From the IMG/VR virus record IMGVR_UViG_2721755724_000002: DNA of 26,478 nt. One strand, 5' to 3'. Below are positions 3,383-24,745 of this stretch, in pieces. Positions within the stretch are counted from its first letter, which is position 1. Each line of letters starts with the position of its first letter. The position numbers and the translations under genes were made by a program. The DNA is from a virus (lineage: Duplodnaviria > Heunggongvirae > Uroviricota > Caudoviricetes). Under the pieces are notes generated by a model. The model was not told the DNA's origin. It searched no databases and saw only the letters and a list, made by a program, of their open reading frames with translations.

Positions 3383-3847
3383 TTACTTTAAACACTGTTC
3401 GGTTATGTATTGCTGAGCACCTTCAAGTTGGGCCTGCATCATTACCAGTCGTTCCCGGAGGGTGAAATAATCCCGTTCAGCGGTGTCTGCCAGTCGGGGG
3501 GAGGCTGCATTATCCACGCCGGAGGCGGTGGTGGCTTCACGCACTGACTGACAGACTGCTTTGATGTGCAACCGACGACGACCAGCGGCAACATCATCAC
3601 GCAGAGCATCATTTTCAGCTTTCGCATTAGCTAACTCCTTCGTGTATTTTTCATCCAGTGCAGCAACATCACGCTGGCGCATCTGCATGTCAGTAATTGC
3701 CGCGTTCGCCAGCTTCAGTTCTCTGGCATTTTTGTCGCGCTGGGCTTTGTAGGTAATGGCGTTATCACGGTAATGATTAACAGCCCATGACAGGCAGACG
3801 ATGATGCAGATAACCAGAGCGGAGATAATCGCGGTTACTCTGTTCAT
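3383..3847 (-). CDS. rzpR: Rz-type inner-membrane spanin (i-spanin)
   Basis: N-terminal TM helix then coiled-coil-like periplasmic region ([20 protein letters not shown]); ATG at 3847 overlaps endolysin stop (ATGA); Rz1 embedded in +1 frame. Track ORF starts at GTG 3859. Confidence 0.8.
3442..3627 (-). CDS. rzoR: Rz1-type outer-membrane lipoprotein spanin (o-spanin), embedded in Rz
   Basis: 61-aa ORF inside Rz in another frame; signal peptide with lipobox LVVVGC and proline-rich mature part ([15 protein letters not shown]), typical of Rz1. Confidence 0.7.
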
Positions 3848-4341
3848 TGCTGACCCCACAAACAGATTTCACGCTCAATCTCACGACGAGTCATGAGACC
3901 TTTCCATTGCTTACCGCCAGCATATGTCCAGCGACGTAGCTGATCACATGCGCCTTTGATATCGCCCTGGTTTATTTTGCGAAGAAGCGTCGATGTTCTG
4001 AAATTGCCAGCACCCACGTTGTAAACGAATGAGTAAAGAGCGCCGCGCGTTGTTTCCGGTATATCGACTTCGATGTACGGGTTAATTTGTCTGGCGACAG
4101 TGGCAAGGTCTTTATTCAAGAGTGCTTTGCATTCTGCTTTGGTATACGTTTTACCGAGCATGATGTCTTTTCCTGTATGCCCGTGACATACAGTCCATAC
4201 ACCAACAATATCTTTGTATGGTATGTAGCTGACACCTTCCAGACCATCGTTACCACTTGGGCCAGTGATTAACACTGATGCTATAGCAATTGCTCCGCCA
4301 CCAATAGCAGCAGCAACGGCTTTTCGTAATGATGGAGGCAT
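3844..4341 (-). CDS. Phage lysozyme (SAR endolysin, phage 21 R-like)
   Basis: 165 aa; N-terminal signal-anchor-release segment ([18 protein letters not shown]) then lysozyme catalytic region ([10 protein letters not shown]...VCHGHTG); start overlaps holin stop (TAATG). Confidence 0.85.
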
Positions 4342-4556
4342 TATTCACCTCTCGCAGCCTTGCGCTTATCTTCTTTAATCTTGAAATAAAGGTTTGTCAG
4401 GTACGTCAGCAGGCCAAAAACCAGACTACCCAGCACACCGATTGCAGCCCACTGTGACGGAGTTACTCTATCGAGCAACTGTAAAAACCAGTAGCCAGCA
4501 CTGCCTGCGGAGGTGCCATAGGCGACACCCGTTGTTAACTTATCCATGGATTTCAT
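4341..4556 (-). CDS. Class II pinholin (phage 21 S-like) with dual-start motif
   Basis: [25 protein letters not shown]...[15 protein letters not shown], two TM segments, charged C-terminus; ATG at 4556 (GAGGTGG Shine-Dalgarno) and second ATG at 4547 resemble the S21 antiholin/holin starts. Track ORF extends upstream to 4649 without support. Confidence 0.8.
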
Positions 4557-4941
4557 AACCCCCACCTCGCAGATGCGGGCGCTGTGTAATGGAAACAAAA
4601 AATGGCCACCAGCGGCCCGTAAAAAACACCCCGTCAAAAGCACCGGCATCCGCAGATGCCCTTTGCGTGGCGTTATTTGATGCGCGCCAGATGTGGCGCA
4701 AAGAAATGAAATAAGACTTATCGAAAATTAAGGTTAATTTGATGATTTAAACCACTTCTGAAGCTTAGTAGTATGAACATGTCCCCAGAAGGGGGCCAAT
4801 ACTTATGATTCTTCATGGACTTTGTCCCGCGGCGTTAATCCGACGGCCGCGCTTTTTTTGCGCCATATTCATCGCTAACTTACATGGCATTGCCACACGG
4901 GCATTATCAGTGTCCGTGTTTCTTTTTTTAGGGTTCAGAAT

Positions 4942-4967
4942 AAAAAAAACCGCCCGGTGGAGGCGGT
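4942..4967 (-). terminator. Rho-independent terminator (minus strand) downstream of the tRNA pair
   Basis: On the minus strand: stem ACCGCC/GGCGGT (plus 4949-4954/4962-4967), 7-nt loop, then U7 (plus A-run 4942-4948). Confidence 0.5.
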
Positions 4968-5240
4968 AAAGGATGTATTTCCAGGTTTTGCTTAGTATAT
5001 GATTAATCTCAATGTCATTTTTAGCGATGTTTACAACATCGGGATGGCACATCACCGGCCCTGCCAGGAAATACAAAATCTCCACCGATAATGCACCATT
5101 CTGCTGCCGTAAAAAAATCAGCACTGAGGCTACACCTGGCCTCAAATCATAGCCAGAGAACAGAATGCTTTTTCGAAACAACCTGCTCCCACGTAATAAA
5201 AATACGCCAGTGCTGCAATACAATAAGGCTTATTTCAAAT

Positions 5241-5315
<75 letters not shown>

Positions 5316-5318
5316 GCA

Positions 5319-5396
<78 letters not shown>

Positions 5397-5612
5397 ACAG
5401 AACCGCCACCGAGGTATCGAATCTCACACCTACCACTTAAATGATGGTCGGCTCTTCCCGATGAGCAGATGGCGGTGTTCCCTTAATGGGATAGCTGTAT
5501 TCAGTAATCCGTTATTCGAATACACCATCGAAGGAACAAGCGCATTATATACATTCACGATTCGTGTTATTAGCTAATTGCGCACAACACAGCTTCATTT
5601 AACGAAATGCCC

Positions 5613-5647
5613 CCCCAGAAACAACAAAACCCGCTCAATGGCGGGTT
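5613..5647 (-). terminator. Candidate tR'-like terminator downstream of Q (minus strand)
   Basis: On the minus strand: stem AACCCGC/GCGGGTT (plus 5628-5634/5641-5647), loop of 6, then U-rich UUUUGUUGUUUCU; about 85 nt downstream of the Q stop, where lambdoid phages have pR'/tR'. Confidence 0.4.
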
Positions 5648-5730
5648 CTGGTAAAGTTCATGCGCTTGGTTCGCCTCGCGATACAGCTTTGCGAAACATA
5701 CCGGAATTGAAGCAATTTATGCGTAAAAAA

Positions 5731-6273
5731 TCAAGCTATTTTTTGAGCAAATGATTCTCGCATGGGAATATACAGGGCATATTCAGCAACGGCTAACCAA
5801 TTAGCAATTCGCTTTTCGCATGTGCTAAAACACCACTCAGGATGTGCATCATTCAGCAATTCAGCCATTTTACGCTTAGTCATCCCCCTCCCTTCATATC
5901 GTTGCCGGAGGATACAAATCAATCCTGGGTGTTTTGCCAGCACCTCACTTATGACTCTATCAATACATAACGCCTCTGCATCAGTACAATGCGCCAGCCA
6001 GGTCTTTTGCTTGCCATTGATCATCTCTCGCAAAAACGCTTCCAGCTCAGGTTTCTCTATTCCCGCTTTTTTCATCCTGCGCAGGGCTTCATTGACGGCT
6101 GTTTTCGTCAATTTTTTGGATGCCAGCAACTGGTTAAACATATTTCCCGTCTTACCGCCGCCAATATACGACCAGCGCCCCCACATGCGCAGTTTTCCCT
6201 GAATCCAGACACTTTCCAGCGTGGTGAGACGAAGGTGTTCCCCGCTTTTGCCTGTATTTGTTGGGTAAATCAT
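5731..6273 (-). CDS. Putative late-gene antitermination protein Q
   Basis: 180 aa from ATG 6273 with AAGGAAGG Shine-Dalgarno, overlapping the upstream stop (ATGA); contains the W-G-x-W motif (LRMWGRW) seen in Q-like antiterminators; lies immediately upstream of terminator, tRNAs and lysis cassette. Track ORF extends to 6393 without RBS support. Confidence 0.6.
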   Translation of the reverse strand: MIYPTNTGKSGEHLRLTTLESVWIQGKLRMWGRWSYIGGGKTGNMFNQLLASKKLTKTAVNEALRRMKKAGIEKPELEAFLREMINGKQKTWLAHCTDAEALCIDRVISEVLAKHPGLICILRQRYEGRGMTKRKMAELLNDAHPEWCFSTCEKRIANWLAVAEYALYIPMRESFAQKIA

Positions 6274-6560
6274 AAATAACCTTCCTTTCTCCAGATTTCT
6301 TGTGTGCGAAAAACACCTTCTGCATGCATCAGGCGTAATTCTTCTTTGGTGTAATCGCTGGTTTTTACCCGCCCGTCGATTAAATCGTGGCATGAGCTAC
6401 AGGCAATCGCTGCCTGCATATCGTGTGGTTTTGTCGCTGTTCCGCACGTCCCCGCCAGCCTGTAATGCGCCAGCACAGAGGTTTCGGGATTGTGATTGCA
6501 GTAGCCAGGGATTCTGATCTGGCACATCTGGCCTTTAGCCGCTTTACGTAAATCCACCAT
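6270..6560 (-). CDS. nin-region protein, YbcO-like (DUF1364-like), Cys-rich putative nuclease
   Basis: 96-aa ORF, ATG at 6560 overlapping upstream stop; conserved cysteines (CQIRIPGYCNHNPETSVLAHYR ... CSSCHD) like DLP12 YbcO as recalled. Confidence 0.55.
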   Translation of the reverse strand: MVDLRKAAKGQMCQIRIPGYCNHNPETSVLAHYRLAGTCGTATKPHDMQAAIACSSCHDLIDGRVKTSDYTKEELRLMHAEGVFRTQEIWRKEGYL

Positions 6561-7159
6561 TACGCAAACTCCAGCAGCTGCGCAGCAACATTTTCGACTT
6601 GTTCCGGAGAGGAAAATTTACGGAACAGGATCCAGTTCCAAAGCACATTCAGTACGGATTTATAAACCTGCTGAAACTCGGTATCGTCCATGTTCGCAAA
6701 CGCGATAGATCTTGCCCTGCGTCCACGGCTACCGTCCGGATAAAAATGCTCGGTGTAAAATCCGGCCTCAATAGTTACCCATTCACGGAAAGCATCAAAT
6801 GACTTTAGCAATGCCGTATCACAGGTTCTGCGTATCGCAATGGTATTCAGATATTGTTCTGCGGCATCACTCAGGGCTGGCGTATGTTCCCGGCCGACCG
6901 AGTCACACAGATAATCAACGAAACCGGACACAAGTTTTCGTTCACGAGAGGTGATCGCCCCACCGACAGGAGTCCAGTAATCGAATCCGAGTTGCAGGAG
7001 TTTGAAAAAACGCTTGTGAAATGCGTAGTTACGAACGCGCTTAAAATCAGCGTGTATCCACTCACCTATTTTTATTTGATGCAAGAATTCGCAACTCTCC
7101 GATGTTGCCGGGAGCAGTAATCCAGAAGAGGTATGTTTGATCAGTTGTATATGTGCCAT
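6560..7159 (-). CDS. Phage nin-region protein of unknown function
   Basis: 199-aa ORF, ATG at 7159 with GGAG Shine-Dalgarno, translationally coupled to the downstream gene; no motif I can name with confidence. Confidence 0.5.
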   Translation of the reverse strand: MAHIQLIKHTSSGLLLPATSESCEFLHQIKIGEWIHADFKRVRNYAFHKRFFKLLQLGFDYWTPVGGAITSRERKLVSGFVDYLCDSVGREHTPALSDAAEQYLNTIAIRRTCDTALLKSFDAFREWVTIEAGFYTEHFYPDGSRGRRARSIAFANMDDTEFQQVYKSVLNVLWNWILFRKFSSPEQVENVAAQLLEFA

Positions 7160-7225
7160 CGGCTTTCTCCGGTGGCACGGTGTTACTCAGCAGGGGGTCA
7201 ACCCTGCGCTGAATTGTAGATGAGT

Positions 7226-7486
7226 TCAATCGTCTTCAAAAGCAGAAAAGCCAGCTTTTAATCCAATTTCTTTTAATGTCCGTAATGATGTGACAAATTC
7301 ATCTTCACGCAACATAAATCCGTCCGTCACATGCCCATTCAAGAGATATATTAACATAGCCCCACTAGGCTGTTGCAAAGCCCGTGAGCAATGAATGCAG
7401 TAACAACTAATAATTTCCCCATTTTCAACGCGCACAGCATAGAGACCATCTTTATTAAAAATTTTGCGCAACTTCTTGAAATCCAT
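7226..7486 (-). CDS. Small phage protein of unknown function (sits where rem sits in Qin-type prophages)
   Basis: 86-aa ORF with ATG at 7486 in the same orientation as neighbours; assignment by position only. Confidence 0.4.
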   Translation of the reverse strand: MDFKKLRKIFNKDGLYAVRVENGEIISCYCIHCSRALQQPSGAMLIYLLNGHVTDGFMLREDEFVTSLRTLKEIGLKAGFSAFEDD

Positions 7487-7640
7487 AAACAGAAATTTTC
7501 CAGATTAATAGCGTTCCCCTGAAGGGTCCATCCCTCTTCTCCCTGCGCGCTAACTAAGCAAACACGATTCTATTTACAACAGTCAGTCCCTCAAGACTTA
7601 CGGCTAAAAGAGTACACAAAAAGCTAATTTATCCACCACA

Positions 7641-7662
7641 ACAAAAAACCCGCCGAAGCGGG
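7641..7662 (-). terminator. Rho-independent terminator of the hok/mok mRNA
   Basis: On the minus strand: stem CCCGC/GCGGG with TTCG tetraloop then UUUUUUGUUG (plus A-run 7642-7647, hairpin 7648-7661); about 70 nt past the hok stop. Confidence 0.6.
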
Positions 7663-7731
7663 TAAGTACGGGTGCGTTGAGGATGCCTGACACATCAGAG
7701 GTGGCGGGGGATTTCTCCCCCGCCGGGTCTC

Positions 7732-7887
7732 TTACTCCTCAGGTTCGTAAGCTGTGAAGACAGCGACCTCCGTCTGGCCGGTTCGGATTCGTACCTCGCA
7801 GAGGTCTTTCCTCGTTACCAGTGCCGTCACAACGACGGTTAAACAGATGACGATCAGGGCGATTAACATCGCCTTTTGCTGCTTCAT
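7732..7887 (-). CDS. hok: Hok-family type I toxin (host killing membrane peptide)
   Basis: Reverse complement 7887-7732 translates to MKQQKAMLIALIVICLTVVVTALVTRKDLCEVRIRTGQTEVAVFTAYEPEE (51 aa), a Hok/Gef-family sequence; below the 60-aa cutoff of the track. Confidence 0.85.
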   Translation of the reverse strand: MKQQKAMLIALIVICLTVVVTALVTRKDLCEVRIRTGQTEVAVFTAYEPEE

Positions 7888-7945
7888 AGCCTGCTTCTCC
7901 TTGACCTTTTGGTCGGTAAGAGGCTAATCTACGTATGCAAAGCAT
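7739..7945 (-). CDS. mok: Mok-like overlapping reading frame (modulation of killing)
   Basis: 68-aa ORF in another frame starting upstream of hok (ATG 7945) and ending near the hok stop, the arrangement of mok in hok/sok loci. Confidence 0.55.
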   Translation of the reverse strand: MLCIRRLASYRPKGQGEAGYEAAKGDVNRPDRHLFNRRCDGTGNEERPLRGTNPNRPDGGRCLHSLRT

Positions 7946-8099
7946 AGATGTGGCCTCAGATTAATGTTAAGCGTCTTGCCGGACGCGTAATGTTAACTGG
8001 GGCTTTTCTCTATCTGCCTTTGGTGTTCATGCCCGAGGCAGACAGCCTCAAGCACCCGCAGCTATTCTACTTAACTCCCGTTACCTCGCCAATATGAAA

Positions 8100-8189
8100 T
8101 CAATCAGAAAGGTGATCCATAAGAGCAATAGCAAGACCATAGATTGCCATTACAGCCGCTATAGCCAACGCACATTTCGTAACCAGCAC
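8100..8189 (-). CDS. Candidate 29-aa hydrophobic peptide (small membrane protein or toxin-like)
   Basis: GTG at 8189 preceded by AGGAGG with 5-nt spacing; encodes (M)LVTKCALAIAAVMAIYGLAIALMDHLSD, one TM-length hydrophobic stretch; an in-frame ATG 5 codons upstream lacks an RBS. Confidence 0.3.
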   Translation of the reverse strand: MLVTKCALAIAAVMAIYGLAIALMDHLSD

Positions 8190-8490
8190 GTTAACCTCCT
8201 GCATTTGACACTCGCATGTGCTGATAAATATGTGGATGTCTCACTGGTGACTCAATAAAACTATTTGGTGTACTTAGTCTATTTTTTTTCTGTGCAACAC
8301 AACAAACCGTCACCACCAGCACTTCCTAAATGCGCTGAGTCAGACACAAGCCAACATTTTAGTCCGCTTTGAGCGAAGAGCGGACATTGATGCCCCCACA
8401 GGCTTTGAAAATATTCAATATAATCACTCCTTGAGTATAAGTTATGTAGCGGAGGAATACATCCGCTACTTTTTAATGTTATGACAGTAA

Positions 8491-11052
8491 TTAATATTTG
8501 AATCTTTTGTTTGGTATGATTTTCAGTTTTTTTGCTAAAGCCGTTAACTTTCTTAAGCGCCACTTAAGGGTGGACTCAGTTAATCCTTCCCCTGCAATAC
8601 CTTTAAAAATTTCATAACAAGGCTGACCAGCGTGTATTGCTTTCCAGAAATCCTCATAGCCGTCATCAAGTATTTGAGCTGTAAGTGCCTCATTAAGCTC
8701 TTCAATATTAGATACTGCTAAGTGCCCATCGACTAAAACACCAGCATTATTTAAATCAGATTTTGCTTTAAGCGCTTCTTTTCCAGTAGGCTCTTTACCG
8801 TTCAGTATCAAGCTGGTAACTTCAATCATTTTAGCGTGAGATGTTACAGGGAAGAAAAGCCCTTTATTTCCTGCCCTTAAGCCCGAAATTTTCTTAAGAT
8901 TTCCTAACTCAGCTGTTGCATCATTATGCGACACATCTGAGGCAATAATGCGACCTTCCCCATCAATTTCTATAATTTTTAGGGCAAGTAACCATGACTT
9001 TAAAATCGTAGAGTATAATCCCCATGTTTTCTCTGATGCCTCAATAAAAGGATAAGACTCAGAAAAATACGTGGGTATATCGCTCTCGAAAACTTTTTCT
9101 CCAGAAAGAATTTTTTTAAGTAAAGTCTCGACGAGTTGATTGTCTAAAATTTTTCGGCGTAGATAACCAGCAAGGGTTCCTTGAGAATATATATCCCTAA
9201 CATTGGTTGGAATTATCCATTCACCACTTTTAACTGCATCAAGCAAGTCTAAATTCCGCAATTCCTTAACGAGATTAAATGCGTAACCTTCCCTTACATT
9301 TAGATTTTCCGTTATTTTTGTAATTGTCAGCTTTCTCATTGTTATCAGTTTATGAAACTGGGATATAACAGAGCTTGGATACATTCTATAAATAACCAGC
9401 AGTCTAAATTCAGGAAGCTTTTGGTAGACAAGATATTCTTTGAAAACATCGTTATAAGTATCATAGGTAGAACCACTCAAGCGTACCAATCTGTAAGCTG
9501 TTAACTTATCGAGGACTTTTACAAGCATTGGGTCTTCGTCAAATTGGTATTGAAGCTCATTGAAATCTGCTGGTAGCTTAGCTGCAATCTTAACTAGATA
9601 ATCTTTTTCAATCTCATCCAAACCTTCAAGCTCTTCTTCAAAAAGGTCGTTCAGTTTTAAGCCCGCACTGATTAAATCCCTCTGAGAGTCACCTTTTCGA
9701 GTGAGTTTTAAAACATGAGCTATCGTTCTCTTTAAAAGCCAAGGAAAACCCTGCGCAAATTCAATAATATAGGGTAGTATTTCTTTACTGAGAATATTAG
9801 AGTTATTTTCATTTATTTTTTCTAAAAGAAGTATTGATTCTTTGTTTTCAAAATCCGGAAGAGTAAAGCTTTTCGATAGCTGATTAATTCTATTAAGAGA
9901 AACTTTACTGTTGTCATAGGTTGTTAGCTGATCATTTTTACGCGCAAACACTATGTATACACCACCACGAAGCTTTGTTATTGAGTTCGCAATGTATTCA
10001 TAGCAATCGAAAATGTCAGGATTCGAGAATGTAGATTCAAATTGGTCAACAAAGAAAACTGCCTTTTGGCCATTTAGTGAAAGTTGCAAGTCTTTCAGTT
10101 GTTCATCAAGTTCTATAAAATTAGTCGCAATAATGCTGCTTTGGGTAAACCTCTGAACAAGATAAAAAACATCATATATTGTTTTTACATCCCTTGAGTC
10201 ATGTAATTCAGTAATAACCCCATCCATTGAGAGCTTGTTTTCTAAAAAGGATACAAGAGAGCTTTTTCCTACTCCAGAGCGACTTTTTATCTGAAGAACA
10301 TGTGGTAGCTCATTATGTTTGATGTGAGAAAGAAGTTCACCTATGAATTCAGTCCTGCCAACGAACACAGTTGGCCCTGCAGGTAGCCTATAGTCAGCCC
10401 ATTCAGTCCCAACAGTTAATCCTCGAACTATTTCACGCTTTACTTGAGGCATTTCGTCAACTATTTTTTTCTTGCTAGGCATAATGAAATCCAAACCAGC
10501 AAGTTCTGAAATCCCTATTTTTAAATTTTCCAAAAATCTTTCATCATCAATTTGGCTGCCACTTTTATTGAATACCACAAAATTTGATGGCGTTCCTGAA
10601 TTTACCTCTTTTAAAATAAATAACTTATACAACCCCGTATCAGTCTTGAGAATGTTTGGGGCCACAAGGTCATAACCTTTAATTTCCTTATGTAGAGATG
10701 TTTCAGTCGGCAAATGCAAAGTCGCAGTTATTTGGTTATAAAGTTCCTTTCCTACCTTTGTCGTTAACCCCATATTTTCGACAGTTCGAAAATAATCTTC
10801 CGCCTCCGGTGTTAATGGTGATAATGACAGAAATAATCCATGCACCTTTTTTTCCAGAAGACCTAGCGGCAAAAGCTTTCCAACGAACGCAGCAACTGTT
10901 TGTCCACTCATGCTTTTGCTGTGTGCTTTAGCTTCGCCAATAATCTTTTGGCCAGTTGCTCTAGAGAATCCTTCAATGTCGTACTCTAAACTAGATTCTT
11001 TTTTCCTTAACTCAATGTCGTATCCAGAGCCTTCCAAGTATTCTTTTAACAA
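8491..11052 (-). CDS. Mrr-like nuclease + STAND-type P-loop NTPase protein; candidate antiphage defence effector
   Basis: 853-codon ORF, strongly AT-rich. N-terminus has a PD-(D/E)xK/Mrr-like pattern (EYDIEGF...IIGEAKAH); P-loop KSRSGVGKSSL at residues ~255-265; Walker B-like AVFFVDQFE near 336; GFPWLL (GxP-like); ~350-aa helical C-terminus. Start is TTG at 11052 without a good Shine-Dalgarno, so the 5' end is uncertain. Confidence 0.75.
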   Translation of the reverse strand: MLKEYLEGSGYDIELRKKESSLEYDIEGFSRATGQKIIGEAKAHSKSMSGQTVAAFVGKLLPLGLLEKKVHGLFLSLSPLTPEAEDYFRTVENMGLTTKVGKELYNQITATLHLPTETSLHKEIKGYDLVAPNILKTDTGLYKLFILKEVNSGTPSNFVVFNKSGSQIDDERFLENLKIGISELAGLDFIMPSKKKIVDEMPQVKREIVRGLTVGTEWADYRLPAGPTVFVGRTEFIGELLSHIKHNELPHVLQIKSRSGVGKSSLVSFLENKLSMDGVITELHDSRDVKTIYDVFYLVQRFTQSSIIATNFIELDEQLKDLQLSLNGQKAVFFVDQFESTFSNPDIFDCYEYIANSITKLRGGVYIVFARKNDQLTTYDNSKVSLNRINQLSKSFTLPDFENKESILLLEKINENNSNILSKEILPYIIEFAQGFPWLLKRTIAHVLKLTRKGDSQRDLISAGLKLNDLFEEELEGLDEIEKDYLVKIAAKLPADFNELQYQFDEDPMLVKVLDKLTAYRLVRLSGSTYDTYNDVFKEYLVYQKLPEFRLLVIYRMYPSSVISQFHKLITMRKLTITKITENLNVREGYAFNLVKELRNLDLLDAVKSGEWIIPTNVRDIYSQGTLAGYLRRKILDNQLVETLLKKILSGEKVFESDIPTYFSESYPFIEASEKTWGLYSTILKSWLLALKIIEIDGEGRIIASDVSHNDATAELGNLKKISGLRAGNKGLFFPVTSHAKMIEVTSLILNGKEPTGKEALKAKSDLNNAGVLVDGHLAVSNIEELNEALTAQILDDGYEDFWKAIHAGQPCYEIFKGIAGEGLTESTLKWRLRKLTALAKKLKIIPNKRFKY

Positions 11053-11399
11053 CTCTTCAAAAAGTAACCCCTTGTAATAACTAGTGTTTTTTTTCAGTTT
11101 GTTCAGAGTGAAAAAATAAAAACATTAAACAACTCCATGTAACTATTATTGATGAGTTATAACGCTCATTAAATTGGTCAAACCGCACTTAAAACGTGGC
11201 TTCCCCATACTAGAAAATCTACTATAAAGAGGATTACATTGCACCTTTAAATTTTAGAGATTTATAAGTGAGACTAATAATCTCGCACTGTATAATCGCA
11301 GGGTAACACATCTTTCAAGCGCCTAGGTGCTCAGATATAAGCCAGATATTAATATAGTGCTCACTATTCCTCGAAAGACCTAGAATGACCGCTTCCGGC

Positions 11400-12680
11400 T
11401 GTGAGTTCAATCAGTGGATGCAACGCTATCCTTAATCAAGGGGGACGTTGCCATGAAACGAAGAACTCGGATTAACTACACGCCAGAGCAGAAGGCAATT
11501 ATCTGGGACAGATATAAGCAAGGTGATTCTCTCCATGATATCGCCAGAATGTTCGACAGATATCATTCTTCCATTATGCCCACTATCCACCAGACAGGGA
11601 GCTACCGTCCTCCCGTGCGAAAACGGTACCGATTAGCGCTTTCGCTTGATAAAAGAGAGGAGATATCCAGAGGAGTGGTAGCAAAACTCAGTATCAGGGA
11701 CATCGCCGCCAAATTATCAAAAGCGCCTTCAACGATTAGCCGCGAGGTCAGGAGGCACGGAGGTGCCAAACAATACCGTGCAGCAAAAGCCGATACTGCT
11801 GCATGGGAAAATGCTCTGAGACCAAAACCTTGCAAGCTAATTGAAAGCCCACATTGTGTAAAATCATTGCAGAGAAGATGCATCAGGACTAGTCGCCGGA
11901 ACAGATCGCCGGCTGGCTGAAACGCTGTTATCCGGATAATCAGGAAATGCATGTGTCACACGAAACGATTTATAAAACGCTTTTTATACAAACCCGGGGT
12001 GCATTAAAAAAAGAACTGCAGCAATGCCTCAGAAGCGGAAGAGCGGTTCGTAGATCCAGAACATCATCGCTTAAAGGGAAAGGGTTAGGGTCAATCCCAG
12101 ATACGATACCAATAAGCGAAAGGCCACCTGAAGTTGCAGACAGAGCCATACCGTGTCACTGGGAAGGTGACCTGATCCAGTGCTCGAAAAACTCCTTTAT
12201 CGTCACCCTCGTAGAACGCCATTCCCGCTTTGTTATGCTGGCAAAAATCAGAGACAACAAGACCATAACGGTTATATCTGCACTCATCAGACAAGCCCGG
12301 GAATTACCTGTTGAGCTTTATAAAACACTAACATGGGACCGGGGCGCTGAAATGACCAGCCATACCCGGTTTACTGTAGCGACAGATATTCAGATTTATT
12401 TCTGTGATCATCAATCTCCATGGCAACGCGGCTCAAATGAAAATACAAACAGATTACTCAGACAGTATTTTCCAAAAGGAACTGACTTATCAGTTCACAC
12501 AGTGTTGCCAGACAGCTCAACGAGCGGCCAAGAAAAACGCTAGACTACGAATCACCCGCAGAACGGTTCAATAAGTGTCTTGCGTCCATCAGTTTAACTC
12601 ACAGCGAAAAGCAGAAGTTCAAAATTTTTCATAACGACTGATGAGAACAACTCCAATTATCAAGTTTACTGGTACCTCTG
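11400..12680 (+). mobile_element. IS30-family insertion sequence, degenerate
   Basis: Left end TGTGAGTTCAATCAGTGGATGCAACGC at ~11400 resembles the IS30 left inverted repeat; internal transposase is IS30-like. Right end placed by element length; I could not find a clean right inverted repeat. Confidence 0.65.
11453..12641 (+). pseudogene. IS30-family transposase, inactivated by two frameshifts and a nonsense codon
   Basis: IS30-like segments lie in three frames: RPKPCKL (from ATG 11453); then KPTLCKIIAEKMHQD-stop-SPEQIAGWLKR, where TAG at 11890-11892 replaces the conserved Trp codon and a frame change falls near 11845; HWEGDL...WDRG...SPWQRGSNENTN in the 11947 frame; C-terminal QLNERPRKTL...FHND after a second frame change near 12505. 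Confidence 0.75.
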
Positions 12681-12737
12681 CCAAGCGTACTTAGAGGTCT
12701 ATGTCTAAACCACCCGCCATGCAGGTGGTTGATTTAC

Positions 12738-14342
12738 CTAATTAGGCCTTGCTTGAATCGCAGACTCTATAGCTTCTCGGAATTCCGGAGCATCACTTCT
12801 TAATCGATAATCATCAAGTGTATTGAATATTTCTAGAAGTTCTTTACGATAATACGGCGATGCCAAATTACCTTCGCCTCTAGTTGTGAAAATTAATAAT
12901 GAGTCAGCGACGTCTTTTAATTTTTTATTCCTTTTCAATCTAATGTAACAAGACACAATTATACCAAGAATATCTTTCCTAGATTTCAAAGTGAGTTTTG
13001 AATTAGGCAAAACCAACTCCAACATAGCACCAAGTAATTTGGTAGCCTCTTTTGAAATATAATGAAGATCGAAATTTTCTGTTTCTTTATTTTCTTGAAG
13101 GATGTCCCTTTCATCTATCCATTCGCATTGTTCTGCCCAATTTATAGCGATGCTAAATAAATGACAGAGAAGGAAGTGAAAAGGTGTTTCCCATTCACCA
13201 CTATATTCATTCGACTGCCTATTCATATTCTTTATGATTTTCTTTGCAAAATGTGTATAGTAATGCAGCCATAAATGATCCTGAAGCCCCTGATGAATAC
13301 CTTCATGAACCATGATTTCAAACAGCGTGATCCCAGAGTAAATAGGACATTTATACTTCGAAACATCTGAATAAGAACCTAAAGATTTATTAAGTGTAGC
13401 AATAATTTTTTCATCTTCATCTAACCTCCAGTAGATATATTCACCGATGTCACGGTATATTGCTAAATCAGCCGCAAACTTAGCATTGGAAAAGAAAAAA
13501 TGTAATATACGATTGTTTTTCGGGATCAACAAACGATGCCCTCGACTAACGTTAAGATTATTTTTAAGCTCAACATATAGACGACTGTTAGGTGAATCTA
13601 GTAATGCACTGATAAAATTAGAAGTAAAGTCAGAACGAACTATTGGTTCGATCTTGATTAACTCAAGGCAGAGGGATGGGTGCGCAAGTGCAAAGTGATT
13701 GGTAAGTTCAGGTGATGAGACAATATTTAATAATGCTTCATGTGCATATTCGGCAGCAGTCTCGCGATTAGAGATGCGGAGATTGTTAGCTATCTTATCA
13801 CAAAGTCGATTCTTCACCGGACTATCAATTATTGATATCAACTTTTCTAGTTGAGGTGCCAACAATTGTGCCAGATCATCGTATCGTTTAGTAAGGTGCA
13901 AATTTTCCACTAACTCTAGAAATATTCCTGTTCTTCCAACTGAAAGTTTAGGTTTTTTTAAGCGAAATAAAATGTAAATAGCAACTGCGAGTGATATCAG
14001 GTATACGGCACTTGAACTATCTAATCCCCATTTCCAGGGGCCAAAACTAAAATATAAGTCTAGTGATTTTAAAGCTGGTGCAAACACCAAATAATTGCTT
14101 AGTAAGAATGCGAAACCAACAATTGCCCAATCCCACCACGCCAGGCAGAACCTCAAACGTAGTCGAGCGTTTGGAGTAATAAGGGCCCATACGGCAGCAA
14201 TAACGCCCAGTATGGTAAGTAGACTTGAAGTATCAATTTTGGTTGGCGGTGTCATAATTTCTCTTGTAATCATGGTTTGATGTACATCGGAATGGCTTAA
14301 CATGATAAGGCTCTTTGTATTATAAATCAGAACATTATGCAC
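12738..14342 (-). CDS. Membrane-anchored protein of unknown function with HEXXH motif; candidate defence-associated gene
   Basis: 534-codon ORF, strongly AT-rich; three predicted TM helices in the first ~125 aa, then ~400-aa helical soluble region with HEGIH (residues 346-350, plus 13293-13307). Track start is GTG 14342; alternative ATG at 14303. Confidence 0.65.
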   Translation of the reverse strand: MHNVLIYNTKSLIMLSHSDVHQTMITREIMTPPTKIDTSSLLTILGVIAAVWALITPNARLRLRFCLAWWDWAIVGFAFLLSNYLVFAPALKSLDLYFSFGPWKWGLDSSSAVYLISLAVAIYILFRLKKPKLSVGRTGIFLELVENLHLTKRYDDLAQLLAPQLEKLISIIDSPVKNRLCDKIANNLRISNRETAAEYAHEALLNIVSSPELTNHFALAHPSLCLELIKIEPIVRSDFTSNFISALLDSPNSRLYVELKNNLNVSRGHRLLIPKNNRILHFFFSNAKFAADLAIYRDIGEYIYWRLDEDEKIIATLNKSLGSYSDVSKYKCPIYSGITLFEIMVHEGIHQGLQDHLWLHYYTHFAKKIIKNMNRQSNEYSGEWETPFHFLLCHLFSIAINWAEQCEWIDERDILQENKETENFDLHYISKEATKLLGAMLELVLPNSKLTLKSRKDILGIIVSCYIRLKRNKKLKDVADSLLIFTTRGEGNLASPYYRKELLEIFNTLDDYRLRSDAPEFREAIESAIQARPN

Positions 14343-14624
14343 ACGGTTAACAATACCCTCAAAATGGCATTAATTAAATGGACACTACTTGTCCACTCAG
14401 TTTTTTTAGTCGGCTTTTTCCGACTAACGTTTGGATGTCCTATTGAAATTACGCGCCTTACATGAGCAACACTGCAACTGCATGTTTATCATAGGGATTG
14501 TGCTAATCAAATTACTGAAGCTTAAGGTCCGCCCCTGGCACAAAACAGACAACCACGCTAGCCGTATCCTGTGCCATGAAACTGTCAATTCACATATGAA
14601 TTAGTGGTCTTTAATCTCGTCACT

Positions 14625-15041
14625 TCAATAAATACCAACATTCCCCTGATAAAATGCTAATACACGCTGCATAACTTCACTCTTCCGGCACTCGCGACAA
14701 ATTATGTTCTGACACCTGTCGTAGCGGCGTATTTCTCCGTCTGGTAATGACCAGATAAGGTCAGGATCAACCATAACCGGTTCCTTCGACTTTGCCCTCG
14801 AGAGTTTTTTGCGGGCGTTTTGCCAGTCTTGACGTGCCTGCTCAGACGGAAATAACCCATAGCCAGAGTTGTATACGTCACCACTCGAAACCAGCTCTTT
14901 GGCGAGAATACTTATCAGATATCTGGTTGCCCCTGTTTTAGCTTCCAGTTGTCGTAACGTCTCTCGCCCGCTCTGGCGTACGAGATCAACAATCTGCCCT
15001 TTAATTTTTTCTCGCTCTTCCTGTGTTAATACTTTTGCCAT
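14625..15041 (-). CDS. Phage early-region protein of unknown function
   Basis: ATG at 15041 (MAKVLTQEE...) preceded by GGGGAGGG; 139 aa; overlaps the upstream gene's stop. Track ORF starts further upstream without RBS support. Confidence 0.6.
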   Translation of the reverse strand: MAKVLTQEEREKIKGQIVDLVRQSGRETLRQLEAKTGATRYLISILAKELVSSGDVYNSGYGLFPSEQARQDWQNARKKLSRAKSKEPVMVDPDLIWSLPDGEIRRYDRCQNIICRECRKSEVMQRVLAFYQGNVGIY

Positions 15042-15057
15042 AAGCCCTCCCCTGGAA

Positions 15058-15783
15058 TCACTTTTCCGACACAATACGACTGGAGGAATCGACAATCTGA
15101 CGGACAATGTCCTGGTGCTTGTTCAGCTCACGCAGCGCGGCGCAGACTCGCTCCCACTTCTGGACATGACTTTTCGCCCGGCGCAGTTCGCGGTTTGCCA
15201 TTTGCAGCGATGGTAAAATCAGGTCATTGGCTCGCGTTTCAGTGAACGATGGTAGTGACTGCACAATGTCCCCCACAGTATCTGTTTTAATTTCTTCCTG
15301 TGTTGCCGCTTCCTGTACTGGTAACGCAACACCGGCTGGCTGAGGAAAGCCTTTACCAGGTGTTTTAACTACCGATACAACTTTCGGCTCTGCTGGTAAA
15401 TTACCGTCCGGCAGGCAGTAACGAAATTTACCGTTCTGATTTACGCGAATCAGACGACCTTTGCTGATGGCCATAGCCAGCGATGAGTTCACCCTGCGGG
15501 AAGTAATTCTGAATATCAGTGCAAGTTCATCAGCCGCTTTAGGGCCATGCTGTTCAATCGCCTCGATCAGCATTTGCGCTGTCACTTTAGAAGCCTGTGC
15601 CACAGATGCGTTTTCGTCGGTTTGAGTCAACCACCACATCGGGCCCTTGTTATCAGCTTCCCCGCGACGCTTCAGTTTCCACAGCTCGTTAATCGCCTCA
15701 TCCCGGGTCATTCCCAGACGTGCTGCCACTTCCTGGGAAGAGGCTTTTCCCATTGCTTTCAGTGCGTCAAAAACGGTCTCCAT
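15058..15783 (-). CDS. Phage replication-region protein (DUF1627-like, tentative)
   Basis: ATG at 15783 (METVFDALKAMGK...) preceded by GGAGG; 241 aa; N-terminus resembles the conserved small domain common downstream of dnaC-like genes in lambdoid prophages. Confidence 0.6.
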   Translation of the reverse strand: METVFDALKAMGKASSQEVAARLGMTRDEAINELWKLKRRGEADNKGPMWWLTQTDENASVAQASKVTAQMLIEAIEQHGPKAADELALIFRITSRRVNSSLAMAISKGRLIRVNQNGKFRYCLPDGNLPAEPKVVSVVKTPGKGFPQPAGVALPVQEAATQEEIKTDTVGDIVQSLPSFTETRANDLILPSLQMANRELRRAKSHVQKWERVCAALRELNKHQDIVRQIVDSSSRIVSEK

Positions 15784-16552
15784 TAAAATTTCCTCCCGGT
15801 AAAAATTGCTTCTCAATTCCTGGCTGACCAACATTCGGGCGCCAGCTCTCCCAGTTAAAATTCACCCATCGCCCGCCGTTCATGGTCATCCGATCCATAA
15901 TCCTCTCGCCGAGCAATGTTTTCATGGCCTCATAGTTCAGGTTTGTCAGCATCCCCACGCTGCGGATCGACGCTGTCCGGCGATCAACAATCTGGTGCAG
16001 TACCACCTGCTCGTTTTTTGTCTCGCGCTGAATGCCAATTTCATCAAGAACCAGCAGATCCACTTCGCACAGTTCCCGCAAAAATTTTTCGCCTGATTGC
16101 CCGTCGTCATAGCTGGCGTGTAGAGCACTCATAACATCAGCCACGGTAACCACAATCACTGTCTGACCGTTTTTCAGCAGGCGATTCCCGATAGCCGCCG
16201 CCAGATGGTTGTTTCCGGTACCAGGTTTTCCGCTGAACGCAAAATTTGTACACCCGACCATCAGTTCATCGGCGATGGATTTCGCCTGGCTCAACGCGTA
16301 TCGCTGGCCGTCGTTCTGCACCTGGTAATTCGAAAACGAGCATTTGCGGTGCAACGGCTGGATGCCGGAGCGATTCAGAATTTTTTCCACCCGCAACTGA
16401 CGATTCTGGCGATTGATCTCCTCGCAACGTTTCTGGCCTTCTGCAAGTTGCCACTCGCGCCACTCCGCCACCGTCCTGAATGGCGCGGTTACATGTGACG
16501 GGGCCAGTCTGCGGATACGTTCCAGAACGCCGCCTGTCGCAATATTTTTCAT
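15767..16552 (-). CDS. ydaV: DnaC-like helicase loader (replication protein)
   Basis: 261 aa; clear DnaC similarity: NRSGI.PLH..CSF.NY, Walker A FSGKPGTGNNHLAAAIGN, Walker B LLVLDEIG, VDRR, GMLTNLNYEAM; ATG at 16552 overlaps the upstream stop. Confidence 0.8.
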   Translation of the reverse strand: MKNIATGGVLERIRRLAPSHVTAPFRTVAEWREWQLAEGQKRCEEINRQNRQLRVEKILNRSGIQPLHRKCSFSNYQVQNDGQRYALSQAKSIADELMVGCTNFAFSGKPGTGNNHLAAAIGNRLLKNGQTVIVVTVADVMSALHASYDDGQSGEKFLRELCEVDLLVLDEIGIQRETKNEQVVLHQIVDRRTASIRSVGMLTNLNYEAMKTLLGERIMDRMTMNGGRWVNFNWESWRPNVGQPGIEKQFLPGGNFNGDRF

Positions 16553-16558
16553 GGTCAG

Positions 16559-17347
16559 TTACCCCCTGAAGCCTGGCGGGATCGCACTGTCCGGCAACGA
16601 GACGGTGTTAACCTGTCGGAGCAACGTCTCAGGCCGAACACCTTTCGGCGCGAACAAGCCCTGGTATTCATTGGCGATGCTGTGTCGAATCACCTGCTCA
16701 GGGGTAAAACCCTGCTGGCGGAATTTTTCCAGTTCCCGTATCGCCCCGTTAGCGCCCTGCTCCGTTCGAATCGGTTTTCGCAATGCCTGCCTGAACTGGA
16801 CCCACTCATTCCAGAGTGTTTCTGGCAACCAGTCGGGCAGAGCAATGGCCTCCGGCTCGAATTTTTTAGACGCTCGTTTTTGCCGAGGGGGATTTAGGGG
16901 GAGATCAGTATTTTTATCTTCCTCTTCCTCTTCCTCTGGTAACGCTTTTTGATCCGTTTGTGTAACGCTGGCAGCGTTACCTTTTCGCTTCAGTTCGCGT
17001 ATTTTTGTAACTCTCTCGTTTGTAACCGCCCGTTTTTTCGAGCTTTTTCCGTTATGACGCTCAAAGTTAGGTAGTGAAAGCACTCCATCACTTTCGACCA
17101 GCCATCCAACCTGAATTAACGCATCAGCAAAACCAGCCATAAAAGTGATACGGTCTATTGCACTTTTTGTAACGCCTCGAGCGTTACACTCTGCGTTACC
17201 ATCAATCATTTGTTGATCCGCCCATGCCCAGAATCGAATGACCTTCCCTAATGCGGCATCTGGATCAATATTAAGAATCTCAGCAATCCTGAATATTTCC
17301 GGTTTATCCGGCGTAATAACTTCGAGCTTTATCCAGTTTGAAGCCAT
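16559..17347 (-). CDS. ydaU: Replication-initiation-associated protein (YdaU-like), contains repeated palindromes
   Basis: ATG at 17347 (MASNWIKLEV...) preceded by AGGTGA; acidic run EEEEEED; coupled to the dnaC-like gene. Track ORF begins at TTG 17425. Confidence 0.7.
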   Translation of the reverse strand: MASNWIKLEVITPDKPEIFRIAEILNIDPDAALGKVIRFWAWADQQMIDGNAECNARGVTKSAIDRITFMAGFADALIQVGWLVESDGVLSLPNFERHNGKSSKKRAVTNERVTKIRELKRKGNAASVTQTDQKALPEEEEEEDKNTDLPLNPPRQKRASKKFEPEAIALPDWLPETLWNEWVQFRQALRKPIRTEQGANGAIRELEKFRQQGFTPEQVIRHSIANEYQGLFAPKGVRPETLLRQVNTVSLPDSAIPPGFRG

Positions 17348-17381
17348 ATTGTTTTCACCTTGTAACGCTCGCAGCGTTACA
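16961..17381. repeat. Three copies of a palindrome TGTAACGC-N3-5-GCGTTACA (iteron- or operator-like)
   Basis: 16961-16981 TGTAACGCTGGCAGCGTTACC; 17169-17189 TGTAACGCCTCGAGCGTTACA; 17361-17381 TGTAACGCTCGCAGCGTTACA (just upstream of the ydaU start); extra half-sites at 16939-16946, ~17020-17031 and 17193-17200. Confidence 0.6.
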
Positions 17382-17425
17382 TTTAACTGATACCGAACAA
17401 AACGCTCCGGCACGATTAATTTCAA

Positions 17426-17848
17426 TCAATGCACTACGACAGAATCGCCGGATGATCCGCCGCGGCTGAAATGCGCTTTCCGGTAAACGGCCTGGACTGC
17501 ATCATCATGCGCATCAATTGCCGTATTCAGCGCTTCCTGAGCCGCCAGTAATGCGCGACGTTCCAGGGTGTCAAAAACGCTGAGGCGGTGTCGCAGTTCG
17601 CGCGGAAGAATTGCCAGGATTGCAGGAATCAACTTCTGGATTTTTTCCCTTTGCGCCTTTGTTTCACCTTTTAACCAGCGGTGATAGATGTTTTGCTGAT
17701 TGTTCCAGTCCTTGCCTGGCGCCAGGGCTAATTCACTCTCCCCCTGGCGCAAATATTCTTCAGTAATTGCGTTGGCAACCCACGCCTGACCTTTTTCGGC
17801 AGCCAGAGCTAACAACACTGATTCAATGTGCTCATGCCTGATTTTCAT
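17426..17848 (-). CDS. ydaT: YdaT-family prophage toxin-like protein
   Basis: ATG at 17848 (MKIRHEHIESVLLALAAEKGQAWVANAITEEYLRQG...) preceded by AGGGT; 140 aa, matching Rac YdaT as recalled; overlaps the end of ydaS. Confidence 0.8.
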   Translation of the reverse strand: MKIRHEHIESVLLALAAEKGQAWVANAITEEYLRQGESELALAPGKDWNNQQNIYHRWLKGETKAQREKIQKLIPAILAILPRELRHRLSVFDTLERRALLAAQEALNTAIDAHDDAVQAVYRKAHFSRGGSSGDSVVVH

Positions 17849-18059
17849 GAATACCCTTACCCGCCCGCTTTGCCTTACGATATTTGTCATAGATATTTGA
17901 GTCGTACTGAAGCTCCCCGCCAGATGCCTCTTGCAGACGCATCGCGCGGCCTTCAGGAACCAGTTCCCCCCATTGAGAAACAGCAGATGGATCAACGCCA
18001 GCAGCTTTCGCCACTTTGGCTTTCGTGCCGTAATAATTAATTACGTCTGATTTAAACAT
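17832..18059 (-). CDS. ydaS: Cro-like small regulator/toxin YdaS
   Basis: ATG at 18059 (MFKSDVINYYGTKAKVAKAAGVDPSAVSQW...) preceded by GGAGG at 5-nt spacing; divergent from racR. Track ORF starts at TTG 18086. Confidence 0.7.
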   Translation of the reverse strand: MFKSDVINYYGTKAKVAKAAGVDPSAVSQWGELVPEGRAMRLQEASGGELQYDSNIYDKYRKAKRAGKGIHENQA

Positions 18060-19297: not shown

Positions 19298-19749
19298 CGA
19301 TTAAAACGTCTGCTCCTACTGTTCCAGAATAACTTCATAAAGTGGGAGTATTTTTCGGTGACGAGATAATAAGAACAGTTTGCGCCATCACTCTGATGTT
19401 GAATGATGCCCTTCCGTTCTAATTTTTTCATAACCGGGTTACGGCAAGGAGAAGTGATAATAAGATTTCCTGTTTTAAGGAAATCTTTAAATACAGCGAT
19501 TTCTTTCTCAGATAAACGAAGCAATACTCGTTGCTCTGGTAGCAATGAATAATGTTTTTGAATATGTGCTCGCAATCTTGAGAAGGAAATGGCAACCACG
19601 AAAGAAAAGGCAAAAACTATAATCTGAAAGAGCCAGGTTATTTCAGTATAAGCATTAAATACGACAGCAAACTCTTTCGGTATCAGCCAGAGAGTGAGGC
19701 CAAAAATGATAATCGTGTACATAAGTCTTTCGATGTGGCTCTTTAGCAA
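19294..19749 (-). CDS. sieB: Superinfection exclusion protein B-like membrane protein
   Basis: Two N-terminal TM segments (TIIIFGLTLWLIP; WLFQIIVFAFSFVVAISF) and position between immunity region and kilR as for Rac sieB; track start is TTG 19749, first ATG at 19722, neither with a clear RBS. Confidence 0.6.
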   Translation of the reverse strand: MLKSHIERLMYTIIIFGLTLWLIPKEFAVVFNAYTEITWLFQIIVFAFSFVVAISFSRLRAHIQKHYSLLPEQRVLLRLSEKEIAVFKDFLKTGNLIITSPCRNPVMKKLERKGIIQHQSDGANCSYYLVTEKYSHFMKLFWNSRSRRFNR

Positions 19750-20001
19750 AAAGTTTCAACAATGGAGTAAATACATCCAACATTTCAATAACTCTCGACT
19801 GTAAGGGTATTGAAATGTTAACACAAGCTCTCGCTGTAGGGGTATAGCCGAGACCACCGAAGCCCGGAGGTGGTGAAATAAAACCGGGCACAACACGAAG
19901 GCGCATTTCCGATATCCATAAAGAGTCGGTCTTGTCTGTTAAATATAAATGGTGGGAGTGCGCCTCCGGTTGTGAATAACGACATTGCTGTGTGTAGTCC
20001 T

Positions 20002-24538: not shown

Positions 24539-24745
24539 ATGACAAAAACTTTGAGATATGACGATGTTAAACCATGTCCGTTTTGTGGTTGTCCATCAGT
24601 AACGGTGAAAGACATTTCAGGATATTACCGGGCAAAATGCAACGGATGCGAATCCCGAACTGGCTATGGTGGAAGTGAAAAAGAAGCGCTCGAAAGATGG
24701 AATAAACGAACCACTGAAAATATTAATGGAGGCGTTCATGTATAA
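24539..24745 (+). CDS. ralR: Restriction alleviation protein Lar/RalR
   Basis: ATG at 24539; MTKTLRYDDVKPCPFCGCPSVTVKDISGYYRAKCNGCESRTGYGGSEKEALERWNKRT... zinc-ribbon-like, matches Lar as recalled. Confidence 0.8.
   Translation: MTKTLRYDDVKPCPFCGCPSVTVKDISGYYRAKCNGCESRTGYGGSEKEALERWNKRTTENINGGVHV

Follow-up and report, generated by a model that had tools for sequence, protein, structure and literature searches.

A rare block of two palindrome-bounded cassettes, with candidate defense genes, in a Rac-type prophage of Escherichia coli

Introduction

Some temperate phages keep a fixed slot, framed by conserved phage genes, that holds alternative and compositionally foreign defense cargoes. Such hotspots in P2 and P4 are reportedly the subject of work by Rousset and coworkers from 2022, and the defense arsenal of E. 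coli prophages is said to have been described by Brenes and Laub in 2025. Further, rearrangements have been seen to join at repetitive extragenic palindromic (REP) sequences. In this report, we analyze an AT-rich block in a 26,478-nucleotide stretch of Caudoviricetes DNA (IMG/VR record IMGVR_UViG_2721755724_000002; hereafter "the window"), which is an E. coli Rac-type prophage. The block lies between a DUF977 gene on one side and the hok/sok locus on the other. We found that it is a composite of two modules, and that the edges of the modules and of the block are short palindromes. An original prediction, made on this stretch alone, had described AT-rich cargo holding two large genes and an IS30 relic. 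Those contents are indeed there (Table 1), but the two cassettes, the frameshift in one of the genes, the hairpin ends and the position of the insertion sequence (IS) inside a third hairpin were missed.

Results and Discussion

Two cassettes with palindromic edges

Both ends of the block lie inside a 24-nt palindrome of the form GTCCGC-N12-GCGGAC, whose loop is of type A (TGAGCGAA) or type B (TGGCAC). At hairpin A, the phage backbone contributes the left arm, and the end of the loop and the right arm go with the cargo: homology to a copy of the block in an unrelated integrative island (L002) starts at 8361, and homology to other prophages (L003, L004) ends at 8385-8388. The minus-strand RNA of this hairpin has a predicted folding energy of -13.6 kcal/mol (z = -3.5). 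Hairpin B is a hybrid, its left part resembling the island copy and its right part the phage backbone.

Each half of the block also occurs by itself. The cassette with the larger gene, which encodes a nuclease-STAND NTPase, is alone in Pantoea stewartii (L005 5728-8765, 89.6% nucleotide identity), where hairpins enclose it and two further hairpin-bracketed single-gene cassettes come after it; its homology to the window begins at 11387-11399, within the L005 hairpin at 5717-5740. The cassette with the gene for a 505-aa membrane protein is alone in an E. coli island (L019 6708-8802, 92% nucleotide identity), again bracketed by hairpins and followed by hairpin-separated modules that hold a Cap4 pair and Gabija. 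For both cassettes, homology begins and stops inside palindromes. Because these loci (L005, L019-22) were retrieved by protein homology and not by the palindrome, they constitute independent evidence.

The boundary between the two cassettes in the window was a third hairpin, which an IS30-family element split at its dyad center, TTCTGCTTTTC-GC-CGGAAGCGGTC. IS30 prefers palindromic hot spots. Two fragments of the transposase reading frame match Pfam HTH_38 (3e-20) and rve (3e-10); with these domains, a length of about 1.2 kb, terminal inverted repeats, a 2-bp duplication and a palindromic target center, the element resembles other members of its family. It differs in that its transposase has a frameshift and a stop (annotated by PGAP as "frameshifted; internal stop"), and this broken frame identifies it as a relic. 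The relic occupies one position in the island and Rac copies alike, and of all parts of the block it has gathered the most differences between them. Compared with the island copy, the window also has 12 nt inserted next to the IS end (11368-11379), 17 nt deleted within the IS (12498) and 4 nt inserted upstream of the gene for the 505-aa protein (14369-14372); these three changes lie in non-coding or dead DNA.

Three other candidate explanations of the arrangement were rejected. IS30 as the mobilizing agent of the block is ruled out, given that the single dead copy is internal, not terminal. An IS481 transposase adjoins the block in the island copy, but in L018 this transposase lies inside the hok/sok region and not at a hairpin, so it is not a hairpin-linked agent. 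Finally, the two large genes do not form a two-gene system: their homologs each occur alone in seven contexts and never together, and a hairpin interrupted by an IS lies between them.

Table 1. Coordinates of the block's genes, palindromes and associated features in the window
Feature	Position	Strand	Remarks
Hairpin A (GTCCGCTTTGAGCGAAGAGCGGAC)	8362-8385	+	Left (hok-side) cargo boundary
G+C-rich terminator-like stem-loop	8446-8469		Just 3' of the STAND stop codon; from a consensus scan; same stem in Pantoea (L005)
Gene for Mrr-type PD-(D/E)xK nuclease, nSTAND1 NTPase and winged-helix-like C-terminal array	8491-11052	-	853 aa, TTG start
Ancestral start region of the STAND gene	11081-11125	-	ATG at 11125; A8 run at 11087-11094; reads MFLFFHSEQTEKKH and stops after 14 codons
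Degenerate 24-nt hairpin, one half	11387-11399		Split by the IS; minus strand ...GCCGGAAGCGGTC
Dead IS30-family element	11400-12603	+	1,204 nt; imperfect terminal inverted repeats (TGTGAGTT...); 2-bp "GC" duplication
Split hairpin, other half	12604-12619		Minus strand AACTTCTGCTTTTCGC; aligns with the A-like hairpin of L019 (8789-8812)
Gene for the 505-aa protein	12738-14255	-	Start set by phrog_13820 and RefSeq
Hairpin B, degenerate (GTCCGCCCCTGGCACAAAACAGAC)	14527-14550	+	Right (DUF977-side) cargo boundary

A foreign and rare block in a Rac-type prophage

The window is 99.9% identical to the Rac-type prophage of strain 127 (NZ_CP023377), in which annotation gives the order intR-xisR-ralR-recT-recE-racC-kilR-sieB'...ydaT-ydaV-DUF1627-DUF977, then the block, then hokD-DUF1367-DUF1364-DUF1133-tRNAs-lysis-trkG-terminase; ttcA adjoins the prophage. 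This is the Rac backbone, and identity to Rac of E. coli K-12 is 95.6% over intR-sieB. Most genes from ~3 kb to 18 kb of the window, those of the block included, are on the minus strand. The flanks agree with the original prediction of replication-side phage genes and a hok locus: they are DUF977, DUF1627 and ydaV on the one hand, and on the other hok (Pfam HOK_GEF, 1e-23) and the sok RNA (Rfam, 105 bits). The deletion across this neighborhood in K-12, also mentioned there, is confirmed, as Rac of MG1655 has no equivalent of window positions 3828-15369.

Comparison with other copies puts the edges of the block at 8362 and 14550, which is about 160 nt and about 70 nt further inside than the span first proposed (8200-14620). 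Sliding-window analysis shows that the block is clearly AT-rich, as predicted, at 37-39% G+C rather than one third: 38.7% for 8361-14541 and 38.8% for the wider span. The corresponding values are 47.5% in the left flank (3400-8200), 50.7% in the right flank (14621-18000) and 46.0% in all of the window outside the block; 500-nt windows inside and outside the block differ (Mann-Whitney p = 1.7e-4). The composition within the block is uneven (36.5% in 8361-11400, 46.7% in the IS30 element and 37.4% in 12601-14541) because the IS is near the backbone value. Codon usage agrees, in that the G+C content at third codon positions (GC3) is 0.30 in both large genes versus 0.43-0.60 in neighboring phage genes.

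The whole block is present in 33 of 5,426 complete E. coli genomes. An identical block is in the Rac context in only five of them, plus one partly deleted derivative. As a full-length Rac integrase gene occurs in 1,831 of the genomes, the block is a rare and recent cargo of Rac; it is absent from nearly all Rac prophages. In about 28 genomes it resides, at 98.7% identity, in the unrelated island (copy L002), which carries inovirus-Gp2-like, GTPase, DUF932, antirestriction and JAB genes and whose homology to the window is limited to 8361-14541. The rarity in Rac, the presence in an unrelated island and the separate occurrence of the halves in Pantoea and in an E. coli defense island support the view that the block is horizontally acquired.

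A sister Rac prophage, that of E. coli 13P484A (NZ_CP019280; L204 13685-14726), has the same frameshifted STAND allele and the same IS30 relic. There, an IS1 copy takes the place of the 505-aa gene and the 3' part of DUF977, an IS1-associated deletion. The cargo is therefore decaying in that lineage.

The DUF977-hok slot in other prophages

The site between DUF977 and hok is a hotspot that holds recognized defense systems. In 560 genomes, no more than ~1 kb separates the two genes, and the interval is occupied by other small inserts. In ten loci with eight different cargoes, the phage backbone is common only from TGGCACAAAGCGGAC onwards, i.e., from hairpin B. At the opposite end, the hok-side flank at hairpin A is joined to at least seven unrelated cargo flanks, and flanks are re-assorted around the hairpin A sequence in 61 viral contigs. 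Cargoes elsewhere in the slot include Tmn (PADLOC, 1e-66), a ThsA-like SIR2 gene set (9e-32), PADLOC Hp1-3, and HAD plus NUDIX genes; most of these cargoes have 34-40% G+C.

The cassette with the SIR2 gene (L039, L076 and L082) spans ~3.6 kb at 37% G+C and has four genes. They encode the ThsA-like SIR2 protein (the PADLOC match at 9e-32), a Ham1/ITPase-like protein, an adenosine-deaminase-like protein (CARF_ADA, 1e-35) and, from a divergently oriented reading frame, a product without an assigned family. This combination looks like an undescribed nucleotide-targeting defense set.

The palindromes across Enterobacterales

Exact copies of type A are found in 61 viral contigs and in 119 genomic stretches from ~100 Enterobacterales species, with one to three per genome; the viral and genomic loci were chosen by exact match to palindrome A, a selection bias that we acknowledge. 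E. coli genomes have one to seven palindrome places each. With up to three mismatches, 92 of the 119 loci have two to seven copies per 8 kb, and shuffled controls have none. The B palindrome is identical to the reverse complement of A at 21 of 24 positions, so the 67 B-A doublets, spaced 38-42 nt, are inverted pairs like REP dimers. The cassettes between palindromes carry small accessory genes of great diversity, which show no bias in orientation. The remaining intergenic regions of the 26-34-kb prophage loci contain no palindromes, and a literature search for the hairpin sequence or for palindrome-bounded defense cassettes found no description.

In six of the viral contigs (L048, L049, L053, L059, L064 and L081), hairpin A lies ~45 nt past the arsC stop codon of a variant arsRBC operon. 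Six unrelated left flanks meet there, including phage tail-fiber, UmuD-like and transposase genes. We rejected the idea that the hairpin belongs to the core ars locus of E. coli, because no such hairpin follows arsC in K-12 and the operon that carries it is a variant with ~79% identity to that of K-12.

How cassettes move between these sites can be read in more than one way. The palindromes could be the sites of a dedicated site-specific recombinase, with heterospecific A x A and B x B exchanges swapping cassettes as in integrons or pdif modules, a reading that we consider unlikely. Their architecture would suit it, for there are inverted arms of 6-7 bp around a conserved 10-12-nt center, and the two center classes stay distinct across ~100 species; yet the arms are short and have no attC-type R/L box pattern. 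The arrays, too, have an integron-like content (GNAT, VOC/glyoxalase, cupin, DinB-like and defense genes, with 89 clusters among 117 reading frames), the cassettes are mostly bounded A...B (79 of 119), and doublets are always ordered B-A, but gene orientation is unbiased (61:56), unlike that of integron cassettes. The genes within 3.5 kb of the sites include no recurrent recombinase. In phmmer searches with tyrosine integrase and serine recombinase queries, which were of low sensitivity and covered 8-kb windows, one weak match was obtained across the 119 loci. Crossovers that can be located do fall in the central region, but the data do not separate this mechanism from short-homology recombination. 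We accord a low probability to an undescribed Enterobacterales cassette-exchange system in which a host- or phage-encoded enzyme would act at hairpin centers on A...B modules. If it existed, accessory and defense modules would be swapped among prophages, integrative islands, integrative and conjugative elements (ICEs), plasmids and chromosomal arrays by a system analogous to integrons and pdif modules but unrelated to them.

Another possibility is that the palindromes are REP-like, akin to bacterial interspersed mosaic elements (BIMEs) or REP doublets forming hairpins (REPINs), or are hairpins at the 3' ends of mRNAs; in either case, they would have no role in mobility, and the block would have entered by illegitimate or IS-mediated recombination, its edges coinciding with palindromes simply because these are intergenic. 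As 24-nt imperfect extragenic palindromes, with the B-A doublet as an inverted pair, they certainly look the part, but one to seven places per E. coli genome and one to three exact copies per species genome are low copy numbers. Many B copies are preceded by C, which creates the CGTC tetranucleotide described for one REP superfamily (PMC3733652). Every palindrome of the window follows the 3' end of a gene, although no canonical U-tract follows the hairpins. Compensatory changes in the arms indicate selection for pairing or dyad symmetry; two hairpins (L005 8742-8765 and L019 11945-11968) have ATCCGC...GCGGAT in place of GTCCGC...GCGGAC, the outermost pair being compensated. The location of the palindromes is harder to reconcile with such elements, because among dozens of prophage intergenic regions they lie only at cargo edges and under the IS. 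Moreover, hundreds of pairwise comparisons place the breakpoints of unrelated flanks no more than a few bases from the palindrome, and the same holds for the loci that were fetched independently. IS-mediated capture would leave the ends of the block unexplained, the IS30 relic being internal. We thus regard this possibility as decidedly improbable.

The Mrr-nSTAND1 protein

The 853-aa reading frame is an N-terminally truncated allele of a family typified by an 877-aa protein. It has a partial Pfam match to the Mrr_cat nuclease, an nSTAND1 match above the curated cut-off, and a STAND-type P-loop NTPase core with Walker A and B motifs. Homologs occur in Proteobacteria, Firmicutes and other phyla, and their length is tightly conserved (874-895 aa). 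E23, D49, E64-x-K66, the Walker A loop and D360/E363 are invariant in the family alignment. An AlphaFold2 model of the 877-aa allele (pLDDT 83) comprises the nuclease domain, a small beta-rich linker, the P-loop ATPase and several winged-helix-like units, the last making up a C-terminal region of ~400 aa; it contains no TPR. Matches to the protein's model and fold include Avs4 and Avs5. A Pfam search with the isolated linker and C-terminal parts yielded no match, and the protein has none in PADLOC, NCBIfam or PHROG; sequence searches of the Protein Data Bank with both block proteins and both family profiles returned nothing significant. The genes of the homologs stand alone, in an ICE region of Pantoea, in a Vibrio island and in a Sporomusa region rich in ISs. 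In Table S10 of the DefensePredictor study (PMC13092281), the 877-aa allele, WP_021536679.1, is listed as a "putative novel defense gene" (log-odds 6.17), with Rst_TIR-NLR as its nearest known protein (HHblits probability 99.4 over 37% of the length). The dN/dS ratios of 0.066 for this gene and 0.20 for the 505-aa gene imply that selection maintains both families.

The allele in the window is itself damaged. An alignment with the island copy, in which both alleles were translated, reveals one extra A in the A8 run (an indel at 11087), which puts the ancestral ATG out of frame. The start in RefSeq is a TTG restart, at the cost of 24 residues that include the invariant F22/E23, the first beta-strand and half of helix 1; the 853-aa allele (WP_073511864.1) is annotated likewise in independent assemblies. 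Since the frameshift removes an invariant glutamate and part of the nuclease fold, the STAND allele of the Rac copy is probably inactive or crippled. A terminator-like stem-loop follows the gene (Table 1); promoter and terminator-like sites in the region are no more numerous than expected from shuffled sequence.

The 505-aa membrane protein

The product of the other large gene is predicted to have three N-terminal hydrophobic (transmembrane) helices and then an all-alpha, HEAT/ARM-like solenoid. It matches phrog_13820 but no Pfam, NCBIfam or PADLOC family. Its homologs are widespread in Proteobacteria and are encoded by stand-alone genes every time. One is beside Gabija and a Cap4-nuclease pair in E. 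coli, one beside a Lamassu-like system in Delftia, and one beside SIR2_2 and an N gene in an Edwardsiella prophage; others are in a Pseudomonas integrase island and in Klebsiella phage-plasmids.

The most conserved stretch of the protein, residues 303-336, reads CP..G..FEIMVHEGIHQGLQDHLWLHY and includes its most conserved motif, 317-HEGIHQGLQDH-327. This HExxH-x5-H pattern resembles the zinc site of metzincins, although the fold is predicted to be an all-alpha solenoid and has no protease-like match. The conservation of the motif hints at metal binding.

The favored explanation

Taken together, the explanation that we find probable, with moderate confidence, is that the block is a defense-type composite of two cassettes that was exchanged into a slot of Rac by recombination within hairpins. 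In the direction of transcription (minus strand), the first cassette encodes the 505-aa membrane helical-repeat protein and the second the nuclease-STAND NTPase. The IS30-family element hit the dyad center of the palindrome between them and then decayed. With the internal boundary destroyed by this insertion, the 6.2-kb pair would thereafter have moved as a single unit, i.e., the split hairpin accounts for its travel as one block. The exchange between island and Rac would have taken two crossovers, one within palindrome A and one within palindrome B. These were most likely short-homology recombination events between palindrome copies that pre-existed in both elements, an assumption favored by the fact that Rac encodes RecE/RecT, which are able to use such short homologies.

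By analogy to Avs proteins, we suggest that the STAND protein is an abortive-infection nuclease. Its C-terminal domain would sense a phage product and cause the NTPase to oligomerize, upon which the N-terminal PD-(D/E)xK nuclease would cut DNA and abort the infection. The 505-aa protein, in turn, may be a single-gene, membrane-associated defense or exclusion factor. Domain content and context lend support to the expectation that the block encodes defense or fitness factors.

A competing view is that the cargo does not serve anti-phage defense, but combines a type IV-like restriction enzyme or addiction module with a membrane protein for fitness, or for superinfection exclusion or lysis timing to the benefit of the prophage itself. 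RefSeq calls the STAND gene a "restriction endonuclease", and winged-helix-like units joined to an ORC/Cdc6-like ATPase would suit DNA recognition; on the other hand, the nSTAND1 match exceeds its curated cut-off, and the arrangement of putative effector, NTPase and C-terminal domain in one stand-alone gene, together with the neighbors, fits defense STANDs. The 505-aa protein has no recognizable effector fold, and its family is also found in phage-plasmids and in the early region of the Edwardsiella prophage; neither protein has a PADLOC model match. Restriction and exclusion are, however, defense functions themselves, and the difference would be mainly one of mechanism. Overall, we deem this view quite unlikely.

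Several points do weigh against the two-cassette defense explanation. Neither protein matches the PADLOC 2023 (PADLOC-DB v2) models even at E = 10, and the DefensePredictor tables that list tested units (PMC13092281) do not include the STAND gene; the association of the 505-aa protein with defense genes is known from a handful of loci. The anti-phage role of both proteins is therefore a prediction. In the wider arrays, the cassettes hold mostly ordinary accessory genes (GNAT, VOC, LysR, ars) and not defense genes, so the palindromes are not defense-specific. Because loci were selected by palindrome A, its sharing among them is by construction, and the informative observations are the re-assortment of flanks and the independently fetched loci. 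Lastly, crossovers within a shared 24-nt sequence are expected whatever the mechanism.

As prophage cargo, the block is ordinary in kind. It does supply two single-gene defense candidates, an 877-aa Mrr-nSTAND1 protein with a non-TPR, winged-helix C-terminus and a widespread, domain-less membrane protein of 505-533 aa, both credited with natural intact and frameshifted alleles for comparison. Further, the DUF977-hok hotspot of Rac/Qin-type lambdoid prophages could be mined like those of P2 and P4. The palindromes give module boundaries at base level, since the same ones bracket cargo in the prophage, the island, the Pantoea ICE region and chromosomal arrays (~100 species). They also make the movement of defense genes between mobile elements testable, the choice being between portable homology for RecET/Red and true recombinase sites.

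Other features of the window

The superinfection-exclusion gene of Rac, sieB (window ~19300-19790; L001 25099-25588), is annotated as frameshifted in the matching RefSeq record. With the frameshifted STAND gene, this makes two damaged genes of the exclusion or putative defense type in this prophage. A second AT-rich cargo gene is trkG (1788-3245, minus strand; 38.1% G+C, GC3 0.33), which lies downstream of the lysis genes and is retained in Rac of K-12 as well. The Rfam scan of the window detected sok, RalA and two tRNAs and nothing else. The two tRNAs are annotated as Gly and Thr, and their genes are situated downstream of the Q-like genes; RalA (218 bits) is the antitoxin small RNA of the RalR/RalA system; these are listed together under positions 5246-5396 and 24744-24922, both on the minus strand.

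Comparison with known systems

Among defense proteins, the closest parallels to the STAND protein are the Avs proteins (Gao et al. 2022; Lee et al. 2026, PMC13581612) and Rst_TIR-NLR (Rousset et al. 2022). It differs from the former in having no PADLOC AVAST/Avs match, in its size (877 aa, compared to ~1,540 aa for Avs4) and in a C-terminal part built of winged-helix-like units instead of the TPR-like repeats that usually form the sensor; the allele in the window additionally lacks the 24 N-terminal residues. Lee and coworkers (PMC13581612) divide the STAND proteins into 589 clades. Rst_TIR-NLR, the nearest known protein according to DefensePredictor, is likewise a single-gene NLR-like protein borne in a phage hotspot, but the match covers only the NTPase region (37%), and the putative effector here is an Mrr nuclease, not a TIR domain.

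The palindromes recall two kinds of described elements. Like integron attC cassettes and Acinetobacter pdif modules, they delimit small, diverse and mostly single-gene modules by short structured or palindromic sites, the modules are shared across replicons, and the content is rich in GNAT, glyoxalase/VOC, cupin and defense genes. They differ from both in being only 24 nt long, with neither attC R/L boxes (RYYYAAC...GTTRRRY) nor a dif-like XerC/D sequence, in having no integrase or other recombinase that recurs near the arrays, and in the unbiased gene orientation. The likeness to REP, BIME and REPIN sequences (Di Nocera et al. 2013, PMC3733652) lies in their being imperfect extragenic palindromes of 20-40 nt, single or as inverted dimers with short spacers, and in their two subtypes that form heterodimers. 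REP sequences number hundreds per genome, whereas the palindromes here number one to a few and, in E. coli, occur exclusively in accessory or mobile DNA; their sequence is unrelated to the REP consensus of E. coli. No association with REP-associated tyrosine transposases (RAYTs) was seen, although no search was aimed at RAYT genes.

At the level of the whole locus, the closest parallel is with the defense hotspots of P2 and P4 and the prophage defense arsenal of E. coli. The slot described here differs in its place, between DUF977 and hok in Rac/Qin-type lambdoid prophages, and in its edges, which are palindromes that are also found outside phages.

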